Shown: one piece after another, positions 8,201-41,228 of the stretch
How positions within the stretch are numbered: the stretch's first letter is position 1
Layout of the letters: each line of letters opens with the position of its first letter
Source: a phage
Assembly: GCA_032298335.1 (NCBI GenBank)
Contig: GCA_032298335.1_4702.1
Strand: one strand, 5' to 3'
Length of the DNA stretch: 43,865 bases
Made by a program: the position numbers and the translations under genes
The notes under the pieces: generated by a model
What the model was told of the DNA's origin: nothing
The model's input: only the letters and a program-made list of their open reading frames with translations
Database searches by the model: none

Positions 8201-8663
8201 GGCAGCAGGATATACCATCAAGGAGGATGGTACTATCCTTAACCCTAAAGGTGTAATACTTAAACCGAGCCAATCAGGAAGGAAATTAAAGTATTTATAT
8301 GTAAGTTGGAGACATCAAGGAAGAAGAGTAACAGAGCTTGTACACAGATTGGTTGCTAAGAAGTACATACCCAACCCACACAGTTTACCAGAAGTTCATC
8401 ATAAAGACTTTAACCCTCTTAATTGTCATAAAGACAATCTTGAATGGACAGATGGTAAGACTAATTGTGAGTATAGTTATGCAAGGGTAGAAGCTGCACT
8501 TGCACGTCATGCTACTTTATTGTCACCTGATGGCATTAAGTACGACATATTTAATGTTCGTAAATTCTGCCGCGAACATGGCCTCAATCCACCTAGTGTA
8601 TTTGAGGTGCTTAGTGGTAAACGGAAGTCACATAAAGGGTGGACTATTTACCGGACACTATAG
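8175..8663 (+). CDS. HNH homing endonuclease
   Basis: HRLVA...NP...PEVHHKDFNPLNCHKDNLEWTDGKTN HNH motif; AT-rich relative to neighbours; overlaps the helicase 3' end; paralog of the gene at 43214. Confidence 0.85.
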   Translation: MLTKLKSFEAAGYTIKEDGTILNPKGVILKPSQSGRKLKYLYVSWRHQGRRVTELVHRLVAKKYIPNPHSLPEVHHKDFNPLNCHKDNLEWTDGKTNCEYSYARVEAALARHATLLSPDGIKYDIFNVRKFCREHGLNPPSVFEVLSGKRKSHKGWTIYRTL

Positions 8664-9516: not shown

Positions 9517-12063
9517 ATGAAATCAATTGATTGGAAGAAGGAAGCGGAAGGGCGCATCCTAGTTATGGACGCCGAGGCGAAAGGTCTACTTGATGCTATA
9601 CGCTATGGTCATCGTGAAGACGTGCATATCATCTGCTGTATGGACCTGTTGACTACAGAGGAGTTTCTCTTCTTCGACCCGTATGAGATGCGTGACCCTG
9701 AAGCAAGAGAACGCCTGAAGGAATGGGAAGGTCATCAAGATGGTGACTTGGTTGATGGTGTTAACTTCCTGAAGCACTGTGAGGCTATTGTGTCGCAGAA
9801 CTTCCTAGGGTATGACGGTCTTCTCTTTGAGAAAGCATTCCCTGATATTTGGAAAGGCTTTAACTATACCGAGAAGCGCGGTAAGGGCAGACTCCGTGCT
9901 GACCTGTGTCCGGTGCGAGTCATGGATACGCTGGTGATGAGTCGCCTGTTAAACCCCGATAGACGCCTTCCTCCGCAAGCATATGCCAAAGGTATGGGTA
10001 ACGTCGCCCCTCACTCAATTGAGGCGCACGGCATCCGTATAGGTCGCTATAAACCGGAGAACGAGGACTGGTCTAAACTAACTGACCACATGGTTCACCG
10101 TGTACGTGAGGACGTGGCGATTGGTCGTGACTTGTTCCTCTGGCTCTTTAACGGGGAATGGATGGAGCACAAACGCCGTGGCGTGAATAAACGCACGGGC
10201 CTAGGCATTGAGACAGCCTTCCACATGGAGTCCATTGTGGCGCTGGAGATGAGCCGTCAGGCCGAGCGCGGGTTCCGTCTGGACATCGACAAGGCTTTGG
10301 CCCGATGCGAAGAATTGGACGCTAAGATTGATGAGACAGTCGCAGCGTTCCGCCCTCACATGCCTATGCGTATCAAGTCTAAACCTTTTAAACCGGAAGA
10401 AAAGAATGAAGTATGCCAACGCGCAAATGAGTATGGAGCTAGCAACAATATACCTACTGTCCTTGACCCCTCACACTTTCTTCATGCCGAGAGACGAGGA
10501 GATCGCAAGACAGTATGGAGTGTCACTACTAAGTCTGGTGATTGGTCGGCTAGTGTCAAGAAAGACTTTCCTCACCTTAGAGGAAACCGTAATGACACGC
10601 CAAGCATCAAGTGGATTGGCGCTTACTCGCCTGTTACTTTCGAAGAGATTCCCTTGGGTAACAGGGATGCAGTTAAGCAAGTGCTCTATGAGTATGGATG
10701 GAAAGGTGTTGAATTTAACGATACCGAGCAAGCTCATCTCGATGAGCACGGAGTGTTACCAAAACCTTGGAGTGGTAAGATAAATGAAAAGTCCCTCACT
10801 TTATGGCAAGAAAGAGCCGCACGTGAAGGTAAAACAGCCCCTGATTGGTGCTTGGGTATCGCTGCATGGTACATACTCGTATCCCGTCGTGGTCAGATAC
10901 TCAACCGTGGTGACGTTGAAGCCTTCAACGAGAAGGGAACGTGGCCCTCGCAGGCTGGTGTACGAAAGTGTCGCGGCCTTGTACCTGTAGCATTCAACAA
11001 GGAGCTAGGAATCAATGCGCAGCAATACTACGAGAGGTACGGATGTTGGCCTACGTCTGACAAAGATGACGGAGAGTGGCGTGTTCCAGCTGTTGCTATT
11101 AGTATTGGCACTTCTACGTTCCGTATGCGTCATCGTAACGTGGTTAATATTCCTGCCCGTGGCTTGTATCCTTTACGTGATTTATTCATAGCAGGGAAAG
11201 GCAAGCTAATCCTTGGTTGTGACGGTGCAGGTCTTGAACTGCGTGTCCTGTCTCACTTCATGAATGACCCTGAGTACCAAGAGATTGTACTGCACGGTGA
11301 TATTCATACGCATAACCAGATGAAGGCTGGTCTTCCTAAGCGTGATATGGCGAAGACGTTTATATACGCCTTCCTCTATGGTTCTGGTATAGCCAACCTT
11401 GCAGCAGTCTGCGGTGTTACTGAGGAAGAAATGAAGGAAGTTGTGGCAAGATTCGAGATTGAACTACCGTCTCTTGCACGTCTTCGTGAGAATGTTATCG
11501 CACAAGGTAACAAGTTTGGCTACCTGCAAGCACTTGATGGGCATTGGGGTCGCATCCGCATGTCTGGTGGTGAACTTAAAGAGCACACGATGCTTAACGT
11601 ATTACTCCAGATGACTGGCTCTTTGTGTATGAAATATGCATTAGTCAAGGCATTTGCAGTAATGCGCAAGGAAGGTGTAGCTTTGGATGCTATGGGAAAT
11701 CCTTGTGGTGTGGCTAACGTGCATGATGAAATCCAGATGGAAGTTCCTGAAGAGGAGGTCTTGTATCTTAACTACGACCTACCTTTCACCTTAGATGGGT
11801 TCGAAACAGAGAAGGCTGCTGTGAAAGCAGTTTTCGATGCAGAGGAGAAACGTGTTCATGTGGATTCTGAAGGACGTATGTGGTCTGCTGCAAACCTAGT
11901 TAGCGTTGATGCTGATGCTGGTGTATTGCATTGCCAGCGCCGTTATCACCGTGCAGGTCATATCATTGCCGACGCCATGACTTGGGCAGGGCAGTATCTG
12001 AAGATGCGTTGCCCGATGGCAGGAGAATATAAGATTGGCGCAAGCTGGAAGGAAACACACTGA
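9517..12063 (+). CDS. DNA polymerase, family A (T7 gp5-like)
   Basis: Motifs DGAGLELRVLSHFM, GDIHTHNQ and AKTFIYAFLYGSG match T7 DNA polymerase motifs A/B; ATG at 9517 with a ribosome-binding site (the ORF track begins at an upstream TTG at 9484). Confidence 0.95.
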   Translation: MKSIDWKKEAEGRILVMDAEAKGLLDAIRYGHREDVHIICCMDLLTTEEFLFFDPYEMRDPEARERLKEWEGHQDGDLVDGVNFLKHCEAIVSQNFLGYDGLLFEKAFPDIWKGFNYTEKRGKGRLRADLCPVRVMDTLVMSRLLNPDRRLPPQAYAKGMGNVAPHSIEAHGIRIGRYKPENEDWSKLTDHMVHRVREDVAIGRDLFLWLFNGEWMEHKRRGVNKRTGLGIETAFHMESIVALEMSRQAERGFRLDIDKALARCEELDAKIDETVAAFRPHMPMRIKSKPFKPEEKNEVCQRANEYGASNNIPTVLDPSHFLHAERRGDRKTVWSVTTKSGDWSASVKKDFPHLRGNRNDTPSIKWIGAYSPVTFEEIPLGNRDAVKQVLYEYGWKGVEFNDTEQAHLDEHGVLPKPWSGKINEKSLTLWQERAAREGKTAPDWCLGIAAWYILVSRRGQILNRGDVEAFNEKGTWPSQAGVRKCRGLVPVAFNKELGINAQQYYERYGCWPTSDKDDGEWRVPAVAISIGTSTFRMRHRNVVNIPARGLYPLRDLFIAGKGKLILGCDGAGLELRVLSHFMNDPEYQEIVLHGDIHTHNQMKAGLPKRDMAKTFIYAFLYGSGIANLAAVCGVTEEEMKEVVARFEIELPSLARLRENVIAQGNKFGYLQALDGHWGRIRMSGGELKEHTMLNVLLQMTGSLCMKYALVKAFAVMRKEGVALDAMGNPCGVANVHDEIQMEVPEEEVLYLNYDLPFTLDGFETEKAAVKAVFDAEEKRVHVDSEGRMWSAANLVSVDADAGVLHCQRRYHRAGHIIADAMTWAGQYLKMRCPMAGEYKIGASWKETH

Positions 12064-12179
12064 TGGATAGGCTTGACATTATTTGCCTATTCTTCACTCT
12101 CTTTCTTACACTCCTTATGCTTGCTTGTTATGGGAGTATGAGACTAGATATACCTGATGAAGAAGAGGGTTACGACTAA
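12063..12179 (+). CDS. Mini membrane protein (38 aa)
   Basis: ATG overlaps the DNA polymerase stop (TGATG); one hydrophobic helix then an acidic tail ending YD. Confidence 0.4.
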   Translation: MDRLDIICLFFTLFLTLLMLACYGSMRLDIPDEEEGYD

Positions 12180-12277
12180 TGCAAACTGCTTTTATTATTC
12201 TTGGTATCATATTATTTATGGTAGTACTCTGGGCCTTCTCTGGCATTGACCCGGATTGTGATGGTAACTACGACTGA
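12179..12277 (+). CDS. Mini membrane protein (32 aa)
   Basis: ATG overlaps the upstream stop (TAATG); one hydrophobic helix then an acidic tail ending YD; same architecture as the preceding peptide. Confidence 0.4.
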   Translation: MQTAFIILGIILFMVVLWAFSGIDPDCDGNYD

Positions 12278-34210: not shown

Positions 34211-35172
34211 TGAGTTATACTTTCACAGAACATATAGCCAACGGTACGCAAGTAACCTATCCCTTTAGATTTGCTGGCAGGGATAAAGGCTATCTTCGTG
34301 CCTCAGATGTGATAGTGGAATCTCTTCAAGGTAACACTTGGATTGAGGTTACATCTGGCTGGCAACTAACTGGCATGCACCAGATTACTTTTGATGTAGC
34401 ACCAGTTGCAGGTTTGAAGTTCCGTATTCGAAGGGAAGTACAAAAGGAGTATCCATACGCTGAGTTTGACCGTGGTGTTACCTTGGATATGAAGTCTTTA
34501 AATGGTTCTTTCATTCATATACTGGAGATTACACAGGAGTTACTTGACGGGTTTTATCCAGAAGGATACTTCATTAAACAGAATGTAAGCTGGGGCGGCA
34601 ATAAGATTACTGATTTGGCTGATGGCACAAATCCTGGAGATGCAGTAAATAAAGGGCAGCTTGATGCCATCGACAAGAAGCATACAGATTGGAACGCCAA
34701 ACAGGACATTGAGATTGCTGGCCTTAAGGTTGGTATGACTTCTGGTATTGCGCACAGAACTGTTCCTTGGTACACGATAGCCAAAGGTGGTGAGATTTCC
34801 GTAAAACCACCTTATGAATTTCAAGATGCACTAGTTTTCCTTAATGGGGTATTGCAGCACCAAATTGTAGGCGCATACTCTATAAGCAACAACACTATCA
34901 CTTTCGCAGAGCCGCTTGTGGCGGGTACAGAGGTGTATGTGCTGATTGGTAGTCGTGTGGCTACATCTGAACCTAATATTCAGTTAGAGTTGAACTTTGA
35001 CTTAGTAGAAGGCCAACAAGTAGTACAGATTGGCTCTGCATTTAAGTACATTGAGGTCTACCTTGATGGATTATTACAACCTAAACTTGCTTATCAGGTA
35101 GACGGTGACATTGTTACTTTCTCAGAGGGAGTGCCAGAATGCCGGATGACTGCTAAGATTATCACAGCATAA
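34210..35172 (+). CDS. Tail-fibre adaptor protein (T7 gp17 N-terminal-domain-like)
   Basis: 320 aa; tail-attachment-domain-like N-terminus; sits directly after the core proteins, while the actual tailspikes are at the right end. Confidence 0.75.
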   Translation: MSYTFTEHIANGTQVTYPFRFAGRDKGYLRASDVIVESLQGNTWIEVTSGWQLTGMHQITFDVAPVAGLKFRIRREVQKEYPYAEFDRGVTLDMKSLNGSFIHILEITQELLDGFYPEGYFIKQNVSWGGNKITDLADGTNPGDAVNKGQLDAIDKKHTDWNAKQDIEIAGLKVGMTSGIAHRTVPWYTIAKGGEISVKPPYEFQDALVFLNGVLQHQIVGAYSISNNTITFAEPLVAGTEVYVLIGSRVATSEPNIQLELNFDLVEGQQVVQIGSAFKYIEVYLDGLLQPKLAYQVDGDIVTFSEGVPECRMTAKIITA

Positions 35173-35181
35173 GGAGGTGGG

Positions 35182-35376
35182 ATGATTAACTCAGAACCGG
35201 TAGATAGTGGTGTGAAGCTTGCGCCACCTGCATTAGTCTCAGGTGGGTACTTCCTCGGTATCAGTTGGAATGATTGGGTTCTTATAGCTACATTCATTTA
35301 TACTGTATTACAAATTGGCGATTGGTTTTATGTAAAATACAAAGCTAGGAGAGATAAGCGTGAGCGTACACAATAA
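35182..35376 (+). CDS. Holin (T7 gp17.5-like)
   Basis: 64 aa; LGISWNDWVLIATFIYTVLQIG parallels T7 holin FGLSLNEWFYVAAIAYTVVQIG; one transmembrane segment and a basic C-terminus. Confidence 0.7.
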   Translation: MINSEPVDSGVKLAPPALVSGGYFLGISWNDWVLIATFIYTVLQIGDWFYVKYKARRDKRERTQ

Positions 35377-35659
35377 ACATGCAGCTACAGAGGATGAGGT
35401 TGGCATTCTGCATGGTGCTATTACCAAAATCTTCAATAAGAAAGCACAGGCAATACTGGACACTATAGAAGAAGACCCTGATGCAGCATTACATTTAGTG
35501 TCTGGTAAGGATATTGGTGCGATGTGTAAGTGGGTTCTTGATAACGGCATTACCGCCACACCTGCTGCACAGCAGGAAGAGTCCAAGTTATCTAAGCGCC
35601 TCAAGGCTATCCGAGAGGCATCCAGTGGTAAGATAATTCAATTCACTAAGGAGGATTGA
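35360..35659 (+). CDS. Terminase small subunit (gp18-like)
   Basis: 99 aa ORF immediately upstream of, and coupled to, the large terminase gene; GTG start with an AGGAGAG ribosome-binding site. Confidence 0.6.
   Translation: MSVHNKHAATEDEVGILHGAITKIFNKKAQAILDTIEEDPDAALHLVSGKDIGAMCKWVLDNGITATPAAQQEESKLSKRLKAIREASSGKIIQFTKED
35451..35471 (+). promoter_or_regulatory. Internal phage promoter inside the small terminase gene
   Basis: CAATACTGGACACTATAGAAG: the 18-nt core is identical to the consensus, the upstream 3 nt differ. Confidence 0.55.
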
Positions 35660-37557
35660 TGGCTAAGGCAAGAGAATCACAAGCGGAGGCTCTTGCCAGA
35701 TGGGAGATGCTACAGGAGTTACAGCAGACCTTTCCTTTCACAGCGGAAGGTTTGCTTCTCTTTGCAGATACAGTTATTCATAACTTAATTGCAGGCAACC
35801 CTCATCTGATTCGTATGCAGGCGGATATCTTGAAGTTCCTATTTTACGGACACAAGTACCGCCTCATCGAAGCGCCTCGTGGTATCGCTAAGACAACACT
35901 ATCAGCAATCTATACGGTATTCCGTATTATTCATGAACCGCATAAGCGTATCATGGTTGTGTCCCAAAACGCCAAGCGAGCAGAGGAAATCGCAGGTTGG
36001 GTAGTTAAAATCTTCCGTGGCTTAGACTTTCTTGAGTTTATGCTGCCGGATATCTACGCTGGGGACCGTGCATCCGTTAAGGCGTTTGAGATTCATTACA
36101 CCCTACGTGGTAGTGATAAGTCTCCTTCTGTATCCTGTTACTCAATCCAAGCAAGTATGCAGGGTGCTCGTGCTGATATTATTCTAGCGGATGACGTAGA
36201 GTCGATGCAGAATGCTCGTACGGCAGCGGGCCGTGCCTTGCTTGAGGAACTGACTAAGGAGTTTGAATCTATCAACCAGTTTGGGGATATCATTTACCTT
36301 GGTACACCTCAGAACGTAAACTCTATCTACAACAACCTACCTGCTCGTGGTTACTCTGTTCGTATCTGGACTGCGCGTTACCCTTCAGTAGAGCAAGAGC
36401 AATGTTATGGCGACTTCCTTGCACCTATGATTGTGCAGAATATGAAGGACAACCCAGCACTGCGCTCAGGGTACGGGTTGGATGGTAATAGTGGTGCACC
36501 TTGTGCCCCTGAAATGTATGATGATGAAGTCCTGATTGAGAAGGAAATCTCTCAGGGTGCTGCTAAGTTCCAGCTTCAGTTCATGCTTAACACTCGCATG
36601 ATGGATGCTGACAGATACCCATTACGCCTGAACAATCTAATCTTCACCTCGTTTGGTACAGAGGAAGTCCCTGTGATGCCTACGTGGAGTAATGATTCCA
36701 TAAACATCATTGGTGATGCACCTAAGTATGGTAACAAGCCTACGGATTTCATGTACAGACCTGTAGCTCGCCCATACGAATGGGGTACTGTCTCCCGCAA
36801 GATTATGTATATTGACCCTGCGGGTGGCGGTAAGAATGGGGATGAGACGGGTGTGGCTATCGTATTCCTGCACGGCACATTCATTTACGTGTATCAGTGC
36901 TTCGGTGTGCCGGGTGGATACCGCGAATCGTCCCTGAATCGCATTGTGCAGGCCGCAAAGCAGGCGGGTGTTAAAGAGGTATTCATTGAGAAGAACTTTG
37001 GTCATGGCGCGTTTGAGGCGGTAATTAAGCCGTACTTTGAACGAGAGTGGCCTGTAACGCTGGAAGAGGATTACGCCACCGGACAGAAAGAGTTGCGTAT
37101 CATTGAGACGCTGGAGCCGCTCATGGCAGCCCATAGGCTTATCTTCAATGCAGAGATGGTGAAGTCAGACTTTGAGTCGGTACAGCACTATCCGCTTGAA
37201 CTACGCATGTCCTACAGTCTTTTCAATCAAATGTCGAACATAACGATTGAGAAGAACAGCCTCCGGCACGATGACCGCCTAGACGCCCTGTATGGCGCTA
37301 TACGGCAATTAACTTCTCAGATAGACTATGACGAGGTTACACGGATTAATCGCCTCAGAGCGCAGGAGATGCGAGATTACATCCATGCTATGAACACACC
37401 TCATCTACGCAGGGCAATGCTATATGGGGATTACGGTACTGAGCGAAGAGTGACCAACACTTCCGTAGCGATGCAGCAGCGAGTTTACGGGCAGAACTAC
37501 CGAAATAAATCGGCAAGCAGAAATACACTTTCTGCAAGGATTTCAAGGACTTATTAA
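35659..37557 (+). CDS. Terminase large subunit (gp19-like)
   Basis: 632 aa; ATPase N-terminal half and nuclease C-terminal half expected from size and position; ATG overlaps the small-subunit stop. Confidence 0.9.
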   Translation: MAKARESQAEALARWEMLQELQQTFPFTAEGLLLFADTVIHNLIAGNPHLIRMQADILKFLFYGHKYRLIEAPRGIAKTTLSAIYTVFRIIHEPHKRIMVVSQNAKRAEEIAGWVVKIFRGLDFLEFMLPDIYAGDRASVKAFEIHYTLRGSDKSPSVSCYSIQASMQGARADIILADDVESMQNARTAAGRALLEELTKEFESINQFGDIIYLGTPQNVNSIYNNLPARGYSVRIWTARYPSVEQEQCYGDFLAPMIVQNMKDNPALRSGYGLDGNSGAPCAPEMYDDEVLIEKEISQGAAKFQLQFMLNTRMMDADRYPLRLNNLIFTSFGTEEVPVMPTWSNDSINIIGDAPKYGNKPTDFMYRPVARPYEWGTVSRKIMYIDPAGGGKNGDETGVAIVFLHGTFIYVYQCFGVPGGYRESSLNRIVQAAKQAGVKEVFIEKNFGHGAFEAVIKPYFEREWPVTLEEDYATGQKELRIIETLEPLMAAHRLIFNAEMVKSDFESVQHYPLELRMSYSLFNQMSNITIEKNSLRHDDRLDALYGAIRQLTSQIDYDEVTRINRLRAQEMRDYIHAMNTPHLRRAMLYGDYGTERRVTNTSVAMQQRVYGQNYRNKSASRNTLSARISRTY

Positions 37558-37576
37558 TTACTGGACACTATAGAAG
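37556..37576 (+). promoter_or_regulatory. Phage RNA polymerase promoter after the terminase gene
   Basis: AATTACTGGACACTATAGAAG; overlaps the terminase stop. Confidence 0.85.
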
Positions 37577-37649
37577 GAAGGCCCAGATAATAAGAGAAAT
37601 AATAGGTAATATATAGGTTAACCTAGGTTATATAGGTATGCCTTAGTAT

Positions 37650-37669
37650 AGGTGTACTCCTGTACACCT
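37650..37669. repeat. Hairpin-forming inverted repeat AGGTGTAC-TCCT-GTACACCT
   Basis: 8-bp perfect stem with a 4-nt loop in the AT-rich leader after the promoter, followed by a tandem TACCTTAC x2. Confidence 0.7.
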
Positions 37670-37721
37670 TATTCATTACTACCTTACTACCTTACTATAT
37701 TTACATAATAGGAGAGAGACA

Positions 37722-37997
37722 ATGGCTAATGATTATAGTAGTCAACCATTAACAGGTAAGTCTAAGAGAAAGCAGGTACAACCTGTAAGTGAAGAACTAA
37801 TGCTTCCGGTAATCAAAAAAGAGGAAGCTAGTAAGAAAAGCAATGTCATTAATGATGCCACCAAATCAGGTAAACAGAAAGGGGCCATGGTGTGCCTTGA
37901 AGTGGAAGGTGTATTGAAGATTGCTATAGCGGTTGATGGCAAAGAAGATTCAGCGTGGAAGTTAGTAACAAGCGGACCAGCTGTTAACCCAGTTTAA
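37722..37997 (+). CDS. Small protein, paralog A (91 aa)
   Basis: Shares SGKQKGAMV ... IA(I/V)A ... SW core with the next ORF; good ribosome-binding site. Confidence 0.6.
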   Translation: MANDYSSQPLTGKSKRKQVQPVSEELMLPVIKKEEASKKSNVINDATKSGKQKGAMVCLEVEGVLKIAIAVDGKEDSAWKLVTSGPAVNPV

Positions 37998-38015
37998 GAT
38001 AAGGAGGAAGATTAC

Positions 38016-38309
38016 ATGGCTAAATATGGTACTACAGGTTCTGTTACTGGTCAGGCTTTTCGAGTAAAAGCAGTACAAACTATTGCAACGGCAATCCCTG
38101 TGCCTGTTGTTAAAGAAGCAGACCTTAAGAGTAAAGATCACCCTATCAACATCAAACACCTGTCAGGTAAGCAGAAAGGCGCAATGGTTGCTGTTGAGAG
38201 AGATGGCACAATCGTGCATATTGCTGTTGCACGTGGTAGTGAACCAACAGACTCTTGGGATGTAACTGGTATGGAAGAGGCCGCTGTCACTCCAGCAGGT
38301 AGAGATTAA
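38016..38309 (+). CDS. Small protein, paralog B (97 aa)
   Basis: Tandem paralog of 37722-37997; good ribosome-binding site. Confidence 0.6.
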   Translation: MAKYGTTGSVTGQAFRVKAVQTIATAIPVPVVKEADLKSKDHPINIKHLSGKQKGAMVAVERDGTIVHIAVARGSEPTDSWDVTGMEEAAVTPAGRD

Positions 38310-38653
38310 TGCTTAACAAATACTTCAAGCGTAAAGAGTTCGCTTGCCGTTGTGGGTGCGGTACATCCACTGTTGATGCTGAATTACTACAGGTAGTCAC
38401 AGATGTGCGTGAGCACTTTGGTTCTCCTGTAGTTATCACTTCGGGGCACCGCTGTGCTAAGCACAATGCTAATGTAGGAGGAGCTAAGAACTCCATGCAT
38501 CTTACTGGTAAGGCTGCTGACATTAAGGTGTCTGGTGTTGGCCCAATGGAGGTACGTGCATACCTCTGCAATAAATACCATGATAAGTACGGTATTGGTG
38601 CTTATCCTACTTTTACCCATATCGACGTTAGAGATAACAAAGCAAGATGGTAA
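38309..38653 (+). CDS. Endolysin, peptidase M15-type cell-wall peptidase
   Basis: 114 aa; KEFACRCGCG ... SGHRC ... H ... GKAADI ... H pattern typical of zinc D-Ala-D-Ala carboxypeptidase-like phage endolysins. Confidence 0.8.
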   Translation: MLNKYFKRKEFACRCGCGTSTVDAELLQVVTDVREHFGSPVVITSGHRCAKHNANVGGAKNSMHLTGKAADIKVSGVGPMEVRAYLCNKYHDKYGIGAYPTFTHIDVRDNKARW

Positions 38654-38761
38654 GATGCATTGAATGGTGTGAACGCATGGTTGCTAAGGCTTCAGAGGAA
38701 GGTAACTATGAAGATTGGCAGAACTACTCAACTTTATTAGCACAATGGAAAGGGAGGTGCA

Positions 38762-38910
38762 ATGAAAAAGCTGTTCAAATCTAAGAAGGTTGTAGGTGCA
38801 CTAGTTGCATTGGCAATTGCTCTTGTTTCTGTAGGTCTTGGTGTAGACCTTGGCTCTGGCACGGAATCCTCTGTGACAGATGTGGTCTGCCAAGTGATCA
38901 CCTGTGAATA
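38762..38910 (+). CDS. Small membrane protein (49 aa), possible second holin or antiholin
   Basis: GGGAGG ribosome-binding site; basic N-terminus then one hydrophobic helix VVGALVALAIALVSVGLGV. Confidence 0.45.
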
Positions 38911-39125
38911 AGTTTCTAGAAGTTCTGGCAGGTCTTATTGGCCTGCTTGTCTCTGCTAAGAAGAAACAAGAAGAGAAGGAGGCACAAAGTGAAGCGAATC
39001 ATGTTAGTGACAACCCTTCTGATTGGTTCGCTGACCACTTCCGGGTGTCAGCAGGCGTTACCAGAGAAAGCAATGGTGAAACCTCTGAGGCCGACGCTGA
39101 CGGAAGTTTACGAGGTAGACGATAA
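38904..39125 (+). CDS. Inner-membrane spanin-like protein (Rz-like, 73 aa)
   Basis: GTG start; N-terminal transmembrane helix FLEVLAGLIGLLVSA then a charged periplasmic part; overlaps the lipoprotein ORF. Confidence 0.45.
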   Translation: MNKFLEVLAGLIGLLVSAKKKQEEKEAQSEANHVSDNPSDWFADHFRVSAGVTRESNGETSEADADGSLRGRR

Positions 39126-39198
39126 GGTCTGCTTTAGTAAGCCTGACGCTACAAAATTAGGTTTGTATATTCTTTCGCTGGAACGCGGATATAATTAA
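38989..39198 (+). CDS. Outer-membrane lipoprotein spanin (Rz1-like)
   Basis: Signal peptide MKRIMLVTTLLIGSLTTSGC with a lipobox Cys; embedded in and extending past the Rz-like frame; AAGGAGG ribosome-binding site before a GTG start. Confidence 0.6.
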   Translation: MKRIMLVTTLLIGSLTTSGCQQALPEKAMVKPLRPTLTEVYEVDDKVCFSKPDATKLGLYILSLERGYN

Positions 39199-39227
39199 TA
39201 CATAGCTTTATGTATCAGTGTCTTACG

Positions 39228-39248
39228 ATTTACTGGACACTATAGAAG
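39228..39248 (+). promoter_or_regulatory. Phage RNA polymerase promoter upstream of the tailspike genes
   Basis: Exact consensus ATTTACTGGACACTATAGAAG. Confidence 0.85.
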
Positions 39249-39329
39249 AGATAAGATAGCGCCGTTCTTTTGAGCGGCCTATTACTAGCCAATCTTCATA
39301 GGGAGGGTTGGAAAGTAATAGGAGATAGT

Positions 39330-41228
39330 ATGGCTAAATTAACCAAACCTAATACTGAAGGAATCTTGCATAAAGGACAATCTTTGTATGAGTACCTTGA
39401 TGCGAGAGTTTTAACATCAAAGCCGTTTGGTGCTGCAGGTGACGCCACTACTGATGATACGGAGGTTATAGCTGCTTCATTAAACTCTCAGAAAGCTGTC
39501 ACAGTCTCAGACGGTGTATTCTCTAGCTCTGGTATTAATAGTAATTACTGTAACTTAGACGGTAGGGGTAGTGGCGTGCTAAGTCACCGTTCCAGTACAG
39601 GTAACTACTTAGTATTTAACAATCTACGTGCAGGTCGCTTAAGTAATATTACGGTAGAAAGTAATAAGGCGACTGATACAACTCAGGGACAGCAGGTATC
39701 TCTTGCTGGTGGAAGTGATGTTACTGTAAGTGACGTTAACTTCTCAAACGTTAAAGGTACTGGTTTCAGTTTAATCGCATACCCTAATGATGCGCCACCT
39801 GATGGACTTATGATTAAAGGCATTCGAGGTCGCTATTCCGGCTATGCTACTAATAAGGCAGCTGGATGCGTACTTGCTGACTCCTCAGTTAACTCCCTCA
39901 TAGATAACGTCATTGCTAAGAACTACCCTCAGTTTGGAGCAGTAGAGTTGAAAGGTACAGCCAGTTACAACATAGTCAGTAATGTTATAGGGGCAGATTG
40001 CCAGCATGTAACTTACAACGGCACTGAAGGGCCAATAGCTCCTTCTAATAACCTTATCAATGGGGTAGTGGCTAATAATCCTAAGTATGCAGCGGTTGTT
40101 GCAGGCAAAGGTAGTACGAACTTAATATCAGATGTGCTCGTAGATTACTCAACCTCTGATGCTAGGCAGGCTCATGGTGTTACAGTAGAGGGGTCTGATA
40201 ACGTCATAAATAATGTGCTTATGTCAGGATGTGATGGTACTAACTCTTTAGGACAAAGGCAGACTGCTACAATTGCACGCTTTATAGGTACAGCTAATAA
40301 CAACTATGCGTCTGTATTTCCTAGCTACAGTGCTACAGGTGTTATTACTTTCGAATCCGGCTCTACCCGTAACTTCGTAGAGGTAAAGCACCCTGGCAGG
40401 AGAAACGACCTTCTCAGTTCTGCTAGCACTATTGACGGTGCAGCTACTATTGACGGCACTAATAATAGTAACGTAGTGCACGCACCTGCCTTAGGGCAGT
40501 ACATAGGTAGTATGTCAGGTAGGTTCGAATGGCGGATTAAGTCCATGTCACTCCCTTCAGGCGTTCTTACTTCTAATGATAAGTACAGAATGCTTGGGGA
40601 TGGTGCTGTATCATTAGCTTTAGGTGGGGGTACTTCTTCTCAAGTTCGCCTATTTACTTCTGATGGTACTTCTCGTACAGTGTCCCTCACCAAAGGTAAC
40701 GTGCGTCTTTCTACCAGTAGCACAGGCTATTTGCAGTTAGGTGCTGATGCAATGACCCCAGATAGTACTGGTACATACGCATTAGGTTCCGCCAGTCGAG
40801 CATGGTCTGGAGGTTTTACTCAAGCAGCATTCACTGTTACATCAGATGCTCGGTGTAAAACAGAACCTCTTACTATCTCAGATGCCTTACTGGATGCTTG
40901 GTCTGAAGTTGACTTTGTGCAGTTTCAGTATTTGGATCGTGTTGAGGAGAAGGGTGCAGACTCAGCTAGATGGCACTTCGGTATCATCGCTCAGCGAGCT
41001 AAGGAGGCTTTCGAACGCCACGGTATAGATGCACATCGCTATGGCTTCTTGTGCTTCGACAGTTGGGATGATGTATACGAGGAAGATGCCAATGGCTCTC
41101 GTAAACTGATTACACCAGCAGGTTCACGCTACGGTATTCGTTACGAGGAAGTACTGATATTAGAGGCTGCGTTGATGCGGAGGACTATCAAGCGTATGCA
41201 GGAAGCACTAGCTTCCCTGCCTAAGTGA
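39330..41228 (+). CDS. Tailspike 1 with C-terminal intramolecular chaperone domain
   Basis: 632 aa; beta-helix-like repeats rich in Gly/Ser/Thr/Asn; the C-terminal roughly 130 aa (TSDAR ... GIIAQRAKEAF ... RYGIRYEEVLILEAALM) resemble the self-cleaving chaperone domain of endosialidase and K5-lyase tailspikes. Confidence 0.85.
   Translation: MAKLTKPNTEGILHKGQSLYEYLDARVLTSKPFGAAGDATTDDTEVIAASLNSQKAVTVSDGVFSSSGINSNYCNLDGRGSGVLSHRSSTGNYLVFNNLRAGRLSNITVESNKATDTTQGQQVSLAGGSDVTVSDVNFSNVKGTGFSLIAYPNDAPPDGLMIKGIRGRYSGYATNKAAGCVLADSSVNSLIDNVIAKNYPQFGAVELKGTASYNIVSNVIGADCQHVTYNGTEGPIAPSNNLINGVVANNPKYAAVVAGKGSTNLISDVLVDYSTSDARQAHGVTVEGSDNVINNVLMSGCDGTNSLGQRQTATIARFIGTANNNYASVFPSYSATGVITFESGSTRNFVEVKHPGRRNDLLSSASTIDGAATIDGTNNSNVVHAPALGQYIGSMSGRFEWRIKSMSLPSGVLTSNDKYRMLGDGAVSLALGGGTSSQVRLFTSDGTSRTVSLTKGNVRLSTSSTGYLQLGADAMTPDSTGTYALGSASRAWSGGFTQAAFTVTSDARCKTEPLTISDALLDAWSEVDFVQFQYLDRVEEKGADSARWHFGIIAQRAKEAFERHGIDAHRYGFLCFDSWDDVYEEDANGSRKLITPAGSRYGIRYEEVLILEAALMRRTIKRMQEALASLPK

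Follow-up and report, generated by a model that had tools for sequence, protein, structure and literature searches.

The lysis genes of a phage were analysed in a 43,865-nucleotide (nt) stretch of DNA, hereafter the window (NCBI GenBank assembly GCA_032298335.1, contig GCA_032298335.1_4702.1). They lie between positions 35,182 and 39,198 and end in two overlapping open reading frames (ORFs) that encode a 73-amino acid (aa) protein, orf73, and a 69-aa lipoprotein; a 49-aa membrane protein, orf49, is encoded immediately upstream. The analysis concerns the lysis cassette as a whole and, within it, whether orf73 or orf49 is the inner-membrane-side partner of the lipoprotein. The region from 35100 to 39300 aligns over its full length with many Vectrevirus genomes (K1-5, KMB14, VEc3, LL11 and others) at 94-98% identity and matches 141 phage records, including SP6-like phages of Salmonella, Klebsiella, Proteus, Citrobacter and Vibrio. 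By sequence, the window is assigned to a K1-5-like Vectrevirus of the well-sampled K1-5/SP6 group of the Autographiviridae, and the region is predicted to hold the usual late lysis genes of podophages of the K1-5/SP6 type. The cassette is not new: its genes are listed in RefSeq, the LL11 and SP6 records and SpaninDB. Its features are the following.

Ends at 35172, + strand: tail fibre ORF
35182-35376, + strand: predicted T7-type holin gene, 64 aa (PF10746, phrog_920)
Starts at 35360, + strand: small terminase ORF, overlapped by the holin gene
35458-35471, + strand: SP6/K1-5-type promoter core GGACACTATAGAAG, exact match, within the small terminase gene, shortly after the holin gene
37563-37576, + strand: promoter core, exact match, just past the large terminase stop codon (37557)
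37722-37997 and 38016-38309, + strand: two paralogous small genes, 91 aa and 97 aa (phrog_2725)
38309-38653, + strand: predicted endolysin gene, 114 aa (PF08291, phrog_894)
38647-38784, + strand: orf45, 45 aa (phrog_1312)
38762-38911, + strand: orf49, 49 aa (phrog_4712)
38904-39125, + strand: orf73, GTG start, 73 aa (phrog_9219)
38989-39198, + strand: lipoprotein gene, 69 aa (phrog_8971)
39235-39248, + strand: promoter core, exact match, predicted to drive the tailspike gene at 39270-41228

Exact promoter cores at 37563 and 39235 bracket the region, so that 37722-39198 is a single promoter-bounded unit containing the two small paralogues, the endolysin gene and four tiny genes. The core occurs in eight exact copies in the window, all on the + strand (further sites at 8653, 12353, 14351 and 22812), and with three or fewer mismatches allowed there are 19 matches where 4.4 are expected. 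The promoter at 37563 would start the lysis transcription unit and the one at 39235 would end it, and the holin gene is probably transcribed together with the upstream structural genes. Within the unit, the successive overlaps from the endolysin gene through orf45, orf49 and orf73 to the lipoprotein gene are 7, 23, 8 and 137 nt, and the 8-nt overlap of the orf49 stop and the orf73 start reads GTGAATAA. A programmed frameshift from orf49 into orf73 was considered and rejected, as there is no slippery site at the junction.

The four tiny genes are real genes under purifying selection. The ratio of nonsynonymous to synonymous polymorphism (pN/pS) was computed over 27 SP6-like genomes, with the same stretches read in the wrong frames as a control. 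The wrong-frame values for the lysis cassette are 1.2-13, compared with 0.23 for the endolysin, 0.28 for orf49 and 0.13 for the lipoprotein C-terminus. Every ORF has a PHROG family match, with E-values from 4e-18 to 3e-45. The four small ORFs are collinear in 24 related loci and also occur in SP6, Proteus PM116, Pseudomonas MR4 and Klebsiella phages. Identity to the K1-5 counterparts is 98-99% for orf49, orf73 and the lipoprotein.

The product of 35182-35376 is predicted to be a T7-type (gp17.5-like) holin and the hole-former of the system. It matches Pfam PF10746 Phage_holin_2_2 over residues 5-55 (E 5.8e-24, 84 bits, gathering cut-off 25.4) and phrog_920 'holin' (E 4e-26), and it is annotated 'holin' or 'class II holin' in K1-5, LL11 and KMB14. 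Its gene lies between the tail fibre and small terminase genes, like T7 17.5, and T7 and ICP3 share this layout. The endolysin is predicted to be a soluble M15 zinc peptidase on the basis of its matches to PF08291 Peptidase_M15_3 (E 3e-33) and phrog_894 'endolysin' (E 3e-45). Its N-terminus, MLNKYFKRKEFACRCG, is hydrophilic and contains neither a signal nor a signal-arrest-release (SAR) segment, and the enzyme would therefore need a hole-forming holin to reach the cell wall. An earlier note on this DNA had placed a T7-type holin gene upstream of the terminase genes, and the endolysin, a second small membrane protein and the lipoprotein downstream of them. All of these ORFs are found where the note put them, the holin ORF directly ahead of the small terminase ORF and with its PF10746 match above the cut-off. 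The description of the lysis genes as 'split' thus fits the layout, but the layout is not notable since it is the norm in T7-like phages; in T7, 17.5 adjoins gene 18, 18.5/18.7 lie further on and the lysozyme gene is elsewhere.

The overlapping lipoprotein and orf73 genes

The lipoprotein gene is the last gene of the endolysin cassette. Its start is most plausibly the GTG at 38989, which lies 6 nt after AAGGAGG (38976-38982) and yields a 69-aa product and the 137-nt overlap with orf73; the mechanical ORF from the TTG at 38938 likewise starts inside orf73. As had been noted earlier, the gene begins within the 73-aa ORF and ends at 39198, 73 nt past 39125. The encoded signal is MKRIMLVTTLLIGSLTTSG/CQQ with the lipobox LTTSG/C, and all 10 diverse homologues compared share the lipobox Cys. 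With Gln and not Asp at +2, the lipoprotein is predicted to escape retention in the inner membrane. The 50-aa mature protein includes a KPxRPTL linker, one conserved Cys and the conserved C-terminus VCFSKPDATKLGLYILSLERGYN, and the family matches phrog_8971 'Rz-like spanin' (E 2e-38). This is the sole credible lipoprotein signal in a genic context within the window, and a scan of all + strand ORFs in the window for transmembrane domains (TMDs) and lipoboxes yields no further spanin candidate in such a context. A unimolecular spanin of the T1 gp11 type was rejected: the protein has no C-terminal TMD and its longest hydrophobic run is LGLYILSL, 8 aa. These features support the prediction that the 69-aa protein is an outer-membrane lipoprotein of the o-spanin (outer-membrane spanin) type.

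orf73 is composed of a short hydrophobic or amphipathic N-terminal helix, the sequence KKKQEEKEAQ, the motif NPxDWFxxHF (residues 37-46) and an unconstrained acidic tail. It matches phrog_9219 (E 5e-32), is found in 137 phage records and matched no Pfam or NCBIfam spanin model. A family search over 1.84 billion cluster representatives returned 356 orf73 clusters, defined at 50% identity, at E <= 1e-3, and the family length is 49-95 aa in all of the best 150 of the 356. Profile searches reach distant relatives with 28-46% identity in uncultivated viral contigs.

The overlap with the lipoprotein gene allows selection to be read in both frames. The non-overlapping residues 4-28 of orf73 have a pN/pS of 0.33. 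Over residues 29-46 the value is 0.19 in the orf73 frame and 0.81 in the frame of the lipoprotein signal peptide, whereas over residues 47-73 the value in the orf73 frame is close to neutrality (0.89), against 0.51 in the lipoprotein frame, which here encodes the KPxKPxL linker. Because the constraint switches frame, residues 1-46 are taken as the selected part of orf73 and the tail as a by-product of the overlap. A cytoplasmic orf73 C-terminus argued from the positive-inside rule, based on the KKK that follows the hydrophobic stretch, was rejected as weak. Lambda Rz also has more Lys and Arg after its TMD than before it, and it is N-in/C-out by experiment.

The orf73 and lipoprotein genes are obligately linked across loci. 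An overlapping lipoprotein ORF accompanies 76 of 77 non-redundant orf73-family ORFs, the exception being cut by the contig end. The reverse search, starting from the lipoprotein, found about 25 distant non-redundant IMG/VR loci, each with a 59-85-aa NPxxWFxxHF ORF that overlaps the lipoprotein start. The pair is retained across loci that differ in endolysin type (M15_3, M15_4-like, transglycosylase or other) and in the upstream membrane protein. The stop codon that overlaps the orf73 start belongs to the immediately preceding gene, which is orf49-like in 33 cases and otherwise encodes a small membrane protein. These other proteins usually have two hydrophobic segments, and one matches Phage_holin_10 (E 1e-15) and others phrog_34682 'holin'; their TMD number was judged from the sequences, the automatic count being too strict and under-calling two-TMD proteins. 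This linkage is the strongest argument for pairing orf73 with the lipoprotein as its putative cognate partner, by analogy with overlapped equivalents of Rz/Rz1.

A fused form of orf73 occurs on a TARA scaffold (L192, 329-616; P0278), where a 95-aa ORF begins with the first TMD (TMD1) and loop known from the holin-like family and continues into the motif region of an orf73-like protein. The fusion has no second membrane-spanning segment. An M15-type endolysin gene directly precedes its gene, which still overlaps the lipoprotein gene, and the contig was recovered from two samples. If functional, this single case would place the motif in the periplasm on a type II anchor, which is the layout of an i-spanin (inner-membrane spanin).

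orf49 and candidate partners of the lipoprotein

orf49 is predicted to be a single-pass inner-membrane protein with N-in/C-out (type II) topology. It has the basic N-terminus MKKLFKSKK with five Lys, one TMD at residues 10-28 and a 21-aa tail that ends in an invariant CxxxxC (C43, C48). The best 19-aa window, VVGALVALAIALVSVGLGV, has a summed apparent free energy of -1.2 kcal/mol, comparable to the -2.5 kcal/mol of lambda Rz. The gene is preceded by a Shine-Dalgarno sequence, GGGAGG, at 38752-38757 and runs to 38911, the earlier end point of 38910 having left out one base of the stop codon; its stop lies 77 nt from the lipoprotein start. orf49 matches phrog_4712 (E 3e-27). None of orf45, orf49, orf73 and the lipoprotein has a Pfam or NCBIfam match above the curated cut-offs, and the NCBIfam matches at E 0.07-0.13 are at chance level. 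The orf49 profile aligns weakly with TMD1 and the loop of two-TMD holin-like proteins (hhalign probability 64%, E 7e-5), a kind of score that TMD composition can inflate, and a two-TMD holin from a distant cassette matches phrog_4712 at E 0.004. In distant relatives, the slot that orf49 occupies is filled by a two-TMD holin-like gene. The suggestion in the earlier note that this protein might be a pinholin does not hold, because it has a single TMD and not two and the endolysin lacks a SAR segment. The antiholin role suggested alongside it, or another holin-related one, is possible for orf49.

The public labels for these genes conflict, and they are given here in the order orf49, orf73 homologue, lipoprotein.

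RefSeq K1-5: holin; not annotated; Rz-like spanin
LL11: putative i-spanin; not annotated; putative o-spanin
KMB14: holin; hypothetical protein; not annotated
SP6 record AY288927.2: i-spanin; 'o-spanin'; not annotated
SpaninDB K1-5, K1E and SP6: i-spanin in a 'separated' pair; not listed; o-spanin
SpaninDB UAB_Phi78: not listed; i-spanin in an 'overlapped' pair; o-spanin

orf49 is thus called holin, i-spanin or hypothetical, with PHROGs also giving holin, and orf73 homologues are called i-spanin, o-spanin, membrane protein or nothing. The SpaninDB assignments are inconsistent on homologous cassettes, since UAB_Phi78 carries all four small genes, as do the K1-5-type phages. In AY288927.2 the 'o-spanin' label of gene 48 (L025 1664-1861) sits on an ORF in the orf73 frame that has no lipobox, and the actual SP6 lipoprotein ORF, at L025 1728-1937, is without annotation. 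The SpaninDB curators marked the K1-5-type entries 'Too small?' and 'Too short' and argued the pair only from its position behind the endolysin gene (Kongari et al. 2018, PMC6139136).

The reading we favour, at a probability of roughly 45%, is that orf73 and the lipoprotein form an outer-membrane-disruption pair and that orf49 is an inner-membrane accessory. The pair is favoured because of the obligate linkage, the selection on the orf73 motif, the P0278 fusion and the UAB_Phi78 entry of SpaninDB. Between orf49 and orf73 as the inner-membrane-side partner, the labels in the literature conflict, and orf73 is preferred here at no more than moderate confidence. The following sequence of events is proposed. 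The T7-type holin would be made with the structural genes, permeabilise the inner membrane and free the soluble M15 endolysin. The last three genes of the cassette would be translated as a coupled string and would carry out the outer-membrane step. In this step, the lipoprotein would be the component anchored in the outer membrane, as in an o-spanin, and orf73 would be its cognate partner in an overlapped two-component architecture, acting through its N-terminal helix and the NPxDWFxxHF motif. orf49 may descend from TMD1 and the loop of the two-TMD holin-like proteins found in the same slot, or be a relative of them, and could either anchor the pair in the membrane or act on the holin. The gene structure, conservation, purifying selection, family matches and orf73-lipoprotein linkage are direct results of the analysis; outer-membrane disruption by the lipoprotein, its physical partnership with orf73 and the part played by orf49 are inferences.

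Several observations weigh against orf73 in this role. The window orf73 segment FLEVLAGLIGLLVSA has an apparent free energy of +0.9 kcal/mol over 15 aa (+1.6 for T7 gp18.5) and a 19-residue sum of +8.3 kcal/mol; it offers just 12 uncharged residues, with E6 within the stretch and KKK directly after it. Across the family, examined with 84 and then 141 members, the longest uncharged run has a median of 6 aa, a median of 5 charged residues fall among the first 20, and the median 19-aa summed free energy is +8.7 to +11 kcal/mol. The hydrophobic moment of 0.58 and mean hydrophobicity of 0.22 are magainin-like and not TMD-like (MKTLEILLRLLDNLLAAIKF... is an example of an amphipathic member), and an uncharged run of at least 15 residues is present in 3 of the 141 representatives. 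orf73 contains no Cys, and neither do all but 5 of the 141. A low-confidence AlphaFold2 model from 84 sequences, which gives no tertiary information, has helices at residues 2-36 and 38-45, a disordered segment at 46-73 and a mean predicted local distance difference test score (pLDDT) of 60, and no coiled coil is predicted beyond one helix. Alignment of orf73 to T7 gp18.5 by hhalign has a probability of 0.15%. A family without a conserved transmembrane anchor cannot simply be filed as a canonical i-spanin. Evidence on the 'Rz-like' label that the earlier note gave to the 73-aa ORF is mixed: the overlapping lipoprotein partner is constant, but there is neither similarity to gp18.5 or a spanin model nor a family-wide TMD. 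The linkage itself may also mislead, in that an overlap can persist by inertia and linkage alone is no proof of interaction. Finally, many distant loci (L106, L118, L139, L145, L151 and L066) encode, upstream of the endolysin, a 76-130-aa protein with one TMD, N- or C-terminal, and a coiled coil. This protein belongs to phrog_462, has weak similarity to DUF2730 or XhlA and has no equivalent in the window; it could be the i-spanin or the holin of those loci, which weakens the argument that the lipoprotein has no alternative partner.

The same evidence bears on the other explanations. The SpaninDB model for K1-5, K1E and SP6 makes orf49 the i-spanin and the lipoprotein the o-spanin, with tails that would meet in the periplasm, possibly through disulfides, and gives orf73 an unrelated function. 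orf49 has the canonical i-spanin topology that this model needs, with a strong TMD, a highly basic N-terminus and a predicted N-in/C-out orientation; its CxxxxC is invariant and the lipoprotein supplies one conserved Cys; and SpaninDB, LL11 and the SP6 record all label it i-spanin. The T7-like vibriophages ICP3, VP4 and N4 encode an orf49-family protein (phrog_4712, E 7e-23) in the interval from gene 18 to gene 19 that corresponds to T7 18.5/18.7; a gene for an unrelated 65-aa lipoprotein follows, and orf73 is absent. A 45-kb ENA contig (L189) has an ICP3-type mini-lipoprotein (22 aa mature) beside an M15 endolysin and a Cys-less orf49 relative. Both contexts support orf49 as a candidate inner-membrane partner of small lipoproteins, at the expense of orf73. 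The model nevertheless appears unlikely to us. The periplasm is roughly 20-25 nm wide, and the 21 residues of orf49 and 50 of the lipoprotein (71 combined), or the ~20 and 22 of the L189 pair (~42 in total), are too few to span it and cannot bridge it as Rz/Rz1 does, as the curators' own flags acknowledge. The lipoprotein family is found in many phages without orf49, orf49 itself has the weak profile match to holin-like proteins and is labelled holin by RefSeq and PHROGs, and the model offers no account of the obligate overlap of the orf73 and lipoprotein genes or of the selection on the orf73 motif. By comparison, orf73 and the lipoprotein together would have a periplasmic length of ~55 + 50 = ~105 aa, at the low end of the published range of 62-300 for combined spanin periplasmic length (PMC6139136).

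orf73 might instead be a cytoplasmic or peripheral lysis regulator, for example an antiholin-like protein coupled to the upstream membrane protein, with the lipoprotein paired to orf49 or another protein and the overlap a historical accident. The amphipathic N-terminus of most of the 141 representatives and the rarity of Cys (5 of 141) fit a regulator, as do the invariable overlap of the orf73 start with the stop of the upstream holin-like or orf49 gene and the near neutrality of the orf73 tail over the mature lipoprotein. The membrane protein Lcc6 of LambdaSo is a precedent for a small extra lysis factor (10.1101/2024.01.23.576932). T4 RIII, a cytoplasmic antiholin, is another such factor. 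A regulator that is free of the lipoprotein would be hard to reconcile with a pair that stays unseparated in 76 of 77 loci despite wide reshuffling of the rest of the cassette, or with the TARA fusion, which puts the motif after a lone TMD and so points to the periplasm. It would also leave the distant phages with an orphan o-spanin, unless the protein with a TMD and coiled coil is the partner there, and we consider this explanation quite improbable. Still further from the favoured pair, and in our estimate very improbable, is a lipoprotein without a lytic function, of the Cor/Llp kind that acts in superinfection exclusion or receptor masking and merely sits beside the endolysin gene. The SpaninDB argument for the pair is purely positional and both proposed partners are too small for a canonical spanin, which leaves room for such a function. 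The lipoprotein family, however, stays in lysis cassettes, after the endolysin and holin genes, across hosts and tail types. The hosts include Escherichia, Salmonella, Klebsiella, Proteus, Pseudomonas, Vibrio and those represented in marine metagenomes, and residence in the lysis cassettes of such different hosts points to a host-generic rather than a receptor-specific function. The +2 residue and lipobox also fit outer-membrane sorting, as in o-spanins.

The pair of orf73 and the lipoprotein may also work in a manner unlike Rz/Rz1. The family comprises at least 356 clusters in SP6-like phages and many uncultivated marine and freshwater phages, and it is possible, if somewhat less than likely, that it is a widespread 'mini' outer-membrane-disruption module whose ~65-aa partner, having no anchor of its own, uses orf49 or meets the lipoprotein after the holin opens the membrane. 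In one form, the partner would be anchored by the co-translated upstream membrane protein, here orf49, to make a split three-part spanin, as the P0278 fusion suggests. In the other, the partner would be cytoplasmic and reach the lipoprotein only when the holin opens the inner membrane. If true, a module of this kind would account for both components being too short to span the periplasm in advance.

Neighbouring small genes

A fifth gene of the downstream group, orf45 (38647-38784), was absent from the earlier note. It encodes a 45-aa soluble peptide with a conserved CxxWC motif that matches phrog_1312, a family of unknown function, at E 4e-18. The peptide is kept in SP6-, PM116-, MR4-like and Klebsiella phages with a pN/pS of 0.27, and its gene is coupled at the 5' end to the endolysin gene and at the 3' end to orf49. 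One protein cluster (P0337; 3 member sequences from 2 contigs) is an 87-aa in-frame fusion of orf45 and orf49. The A5 run that follows the orf49 ATG (38765-38769) would need only a 1-nt change to produce the fusion, which could also stem from a sequencing error in the homopolymer; a real fusion would suggest that orf45 functions on the side of orf49 that faces the cytoplasm. A programmed frameshift between orf45 and orf49 was rejected, as the 1-nt change explains P0337 equally well. In MR4-like phages (Pseudomonas phage MR4, L027 1005-1340; also L058 and L059) the orf45-like and orf49-like genes are separated by an additional gene of 104-111 aa. The endolysin of these phages is a transglycosylase with a hydrophobic N-terminus and may be of the SAR or signal type.

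The paralogues at 37722-37997 and 38016-38309 match phrog_2725 (E 4e-36 and 1e-43, respectively) and no Pfam family above cut-off, with a weak match to DUF7486 only. They do not seem to be lysis genes. The name 'acetyl-CoA acetyltransferase' that they carry in public records looks like an error copied from one annotation to the next, and in Klebsiella phage VLCpiA2b a 'Hoc-like head decoration' gene lies beside them. Far upstream in the window, two abutting tiny ORFs of 38 and 32 aa (12063-12179 and 12179-12277) each encode a very hydrophobic segment, and the one at 12063-12179 carries a lipobox-like LLMLAC. These ORFs may encode early or middle small membrane proteins or may be chance ORFs.

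Comparison with known systems

Essentially all experimental spanin work has been done on lambda (PMC6139136). The window itself adds little, as dozens of sequenced K1-5/SP6-like phages have a nearly identical cassette. Its remaining value lies in annotation, where the public labels are contradictory, and in spanin biology. If the partner of the lipoprotein truly has no membrane anchor, the spanins flagged in 2018 as 'too small to span' would need a different mechanism. K1-5/SP6-like phages also serve as therapeutic and depolymerase chassis.

Lcc6 of the Shewanella phage LambdaSo is a ~65-aa membrane protein of otherwise unknown function that lysis requires besides holin, endolysin and spanin (10.1101/2024.01.23.576932). 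It is a precedent by description for an extra small lysis protein, and it works with a pinholin and a SAR endolysin, neither of which the window phage has. T7 gp18.5/gp18.7 come from the same supergroup, and in both phages the holin gene adjoins the small terminase gene. The T7 spanin genes lie between the terminase genes, whereas in the window this slot is empty and the candidates follow the endolysin gene, past the large terminase gene. Neither orf49 nor orf73 is similar to T7 gp18.5 (hhalign probability <1%); for the orf49 family the alignment amounts to a shared 'GLGxxLGS' patch at 0.65%.

The mini pair of ICP3, VP4 and N4 resembles the window in its 47-aa orf49-family protein with a C-terminal CxxxxC, followed by a small lipoprotein gene. 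It differs in that the lipoprotein belongs to the unrelated phrog_10167, orf73 is absent and the genes occupy the T7 18.5/18.7 slot. The overlapped spanins LysB/LysC of P2 share the gene architecture: the lipoprotein gene starts within its partner in another frame, runs past the partner's stop and stands at the end of the cassette. Unlike proteins of this type, orf73 is only 73 aa long (most i-spanins are ~100-190 aa), has no robust family-wide TMD and no Cys, and shows no sequence similarity. The closest counterparts are the K1-5, K1E, SP6 and UAB_Phi78 entries of SpaninDB, which hold the same genes as the window; only the putative i-spanin assignment differs, being given to orf49 in the first three and to the orf73 homologue in the fourth.

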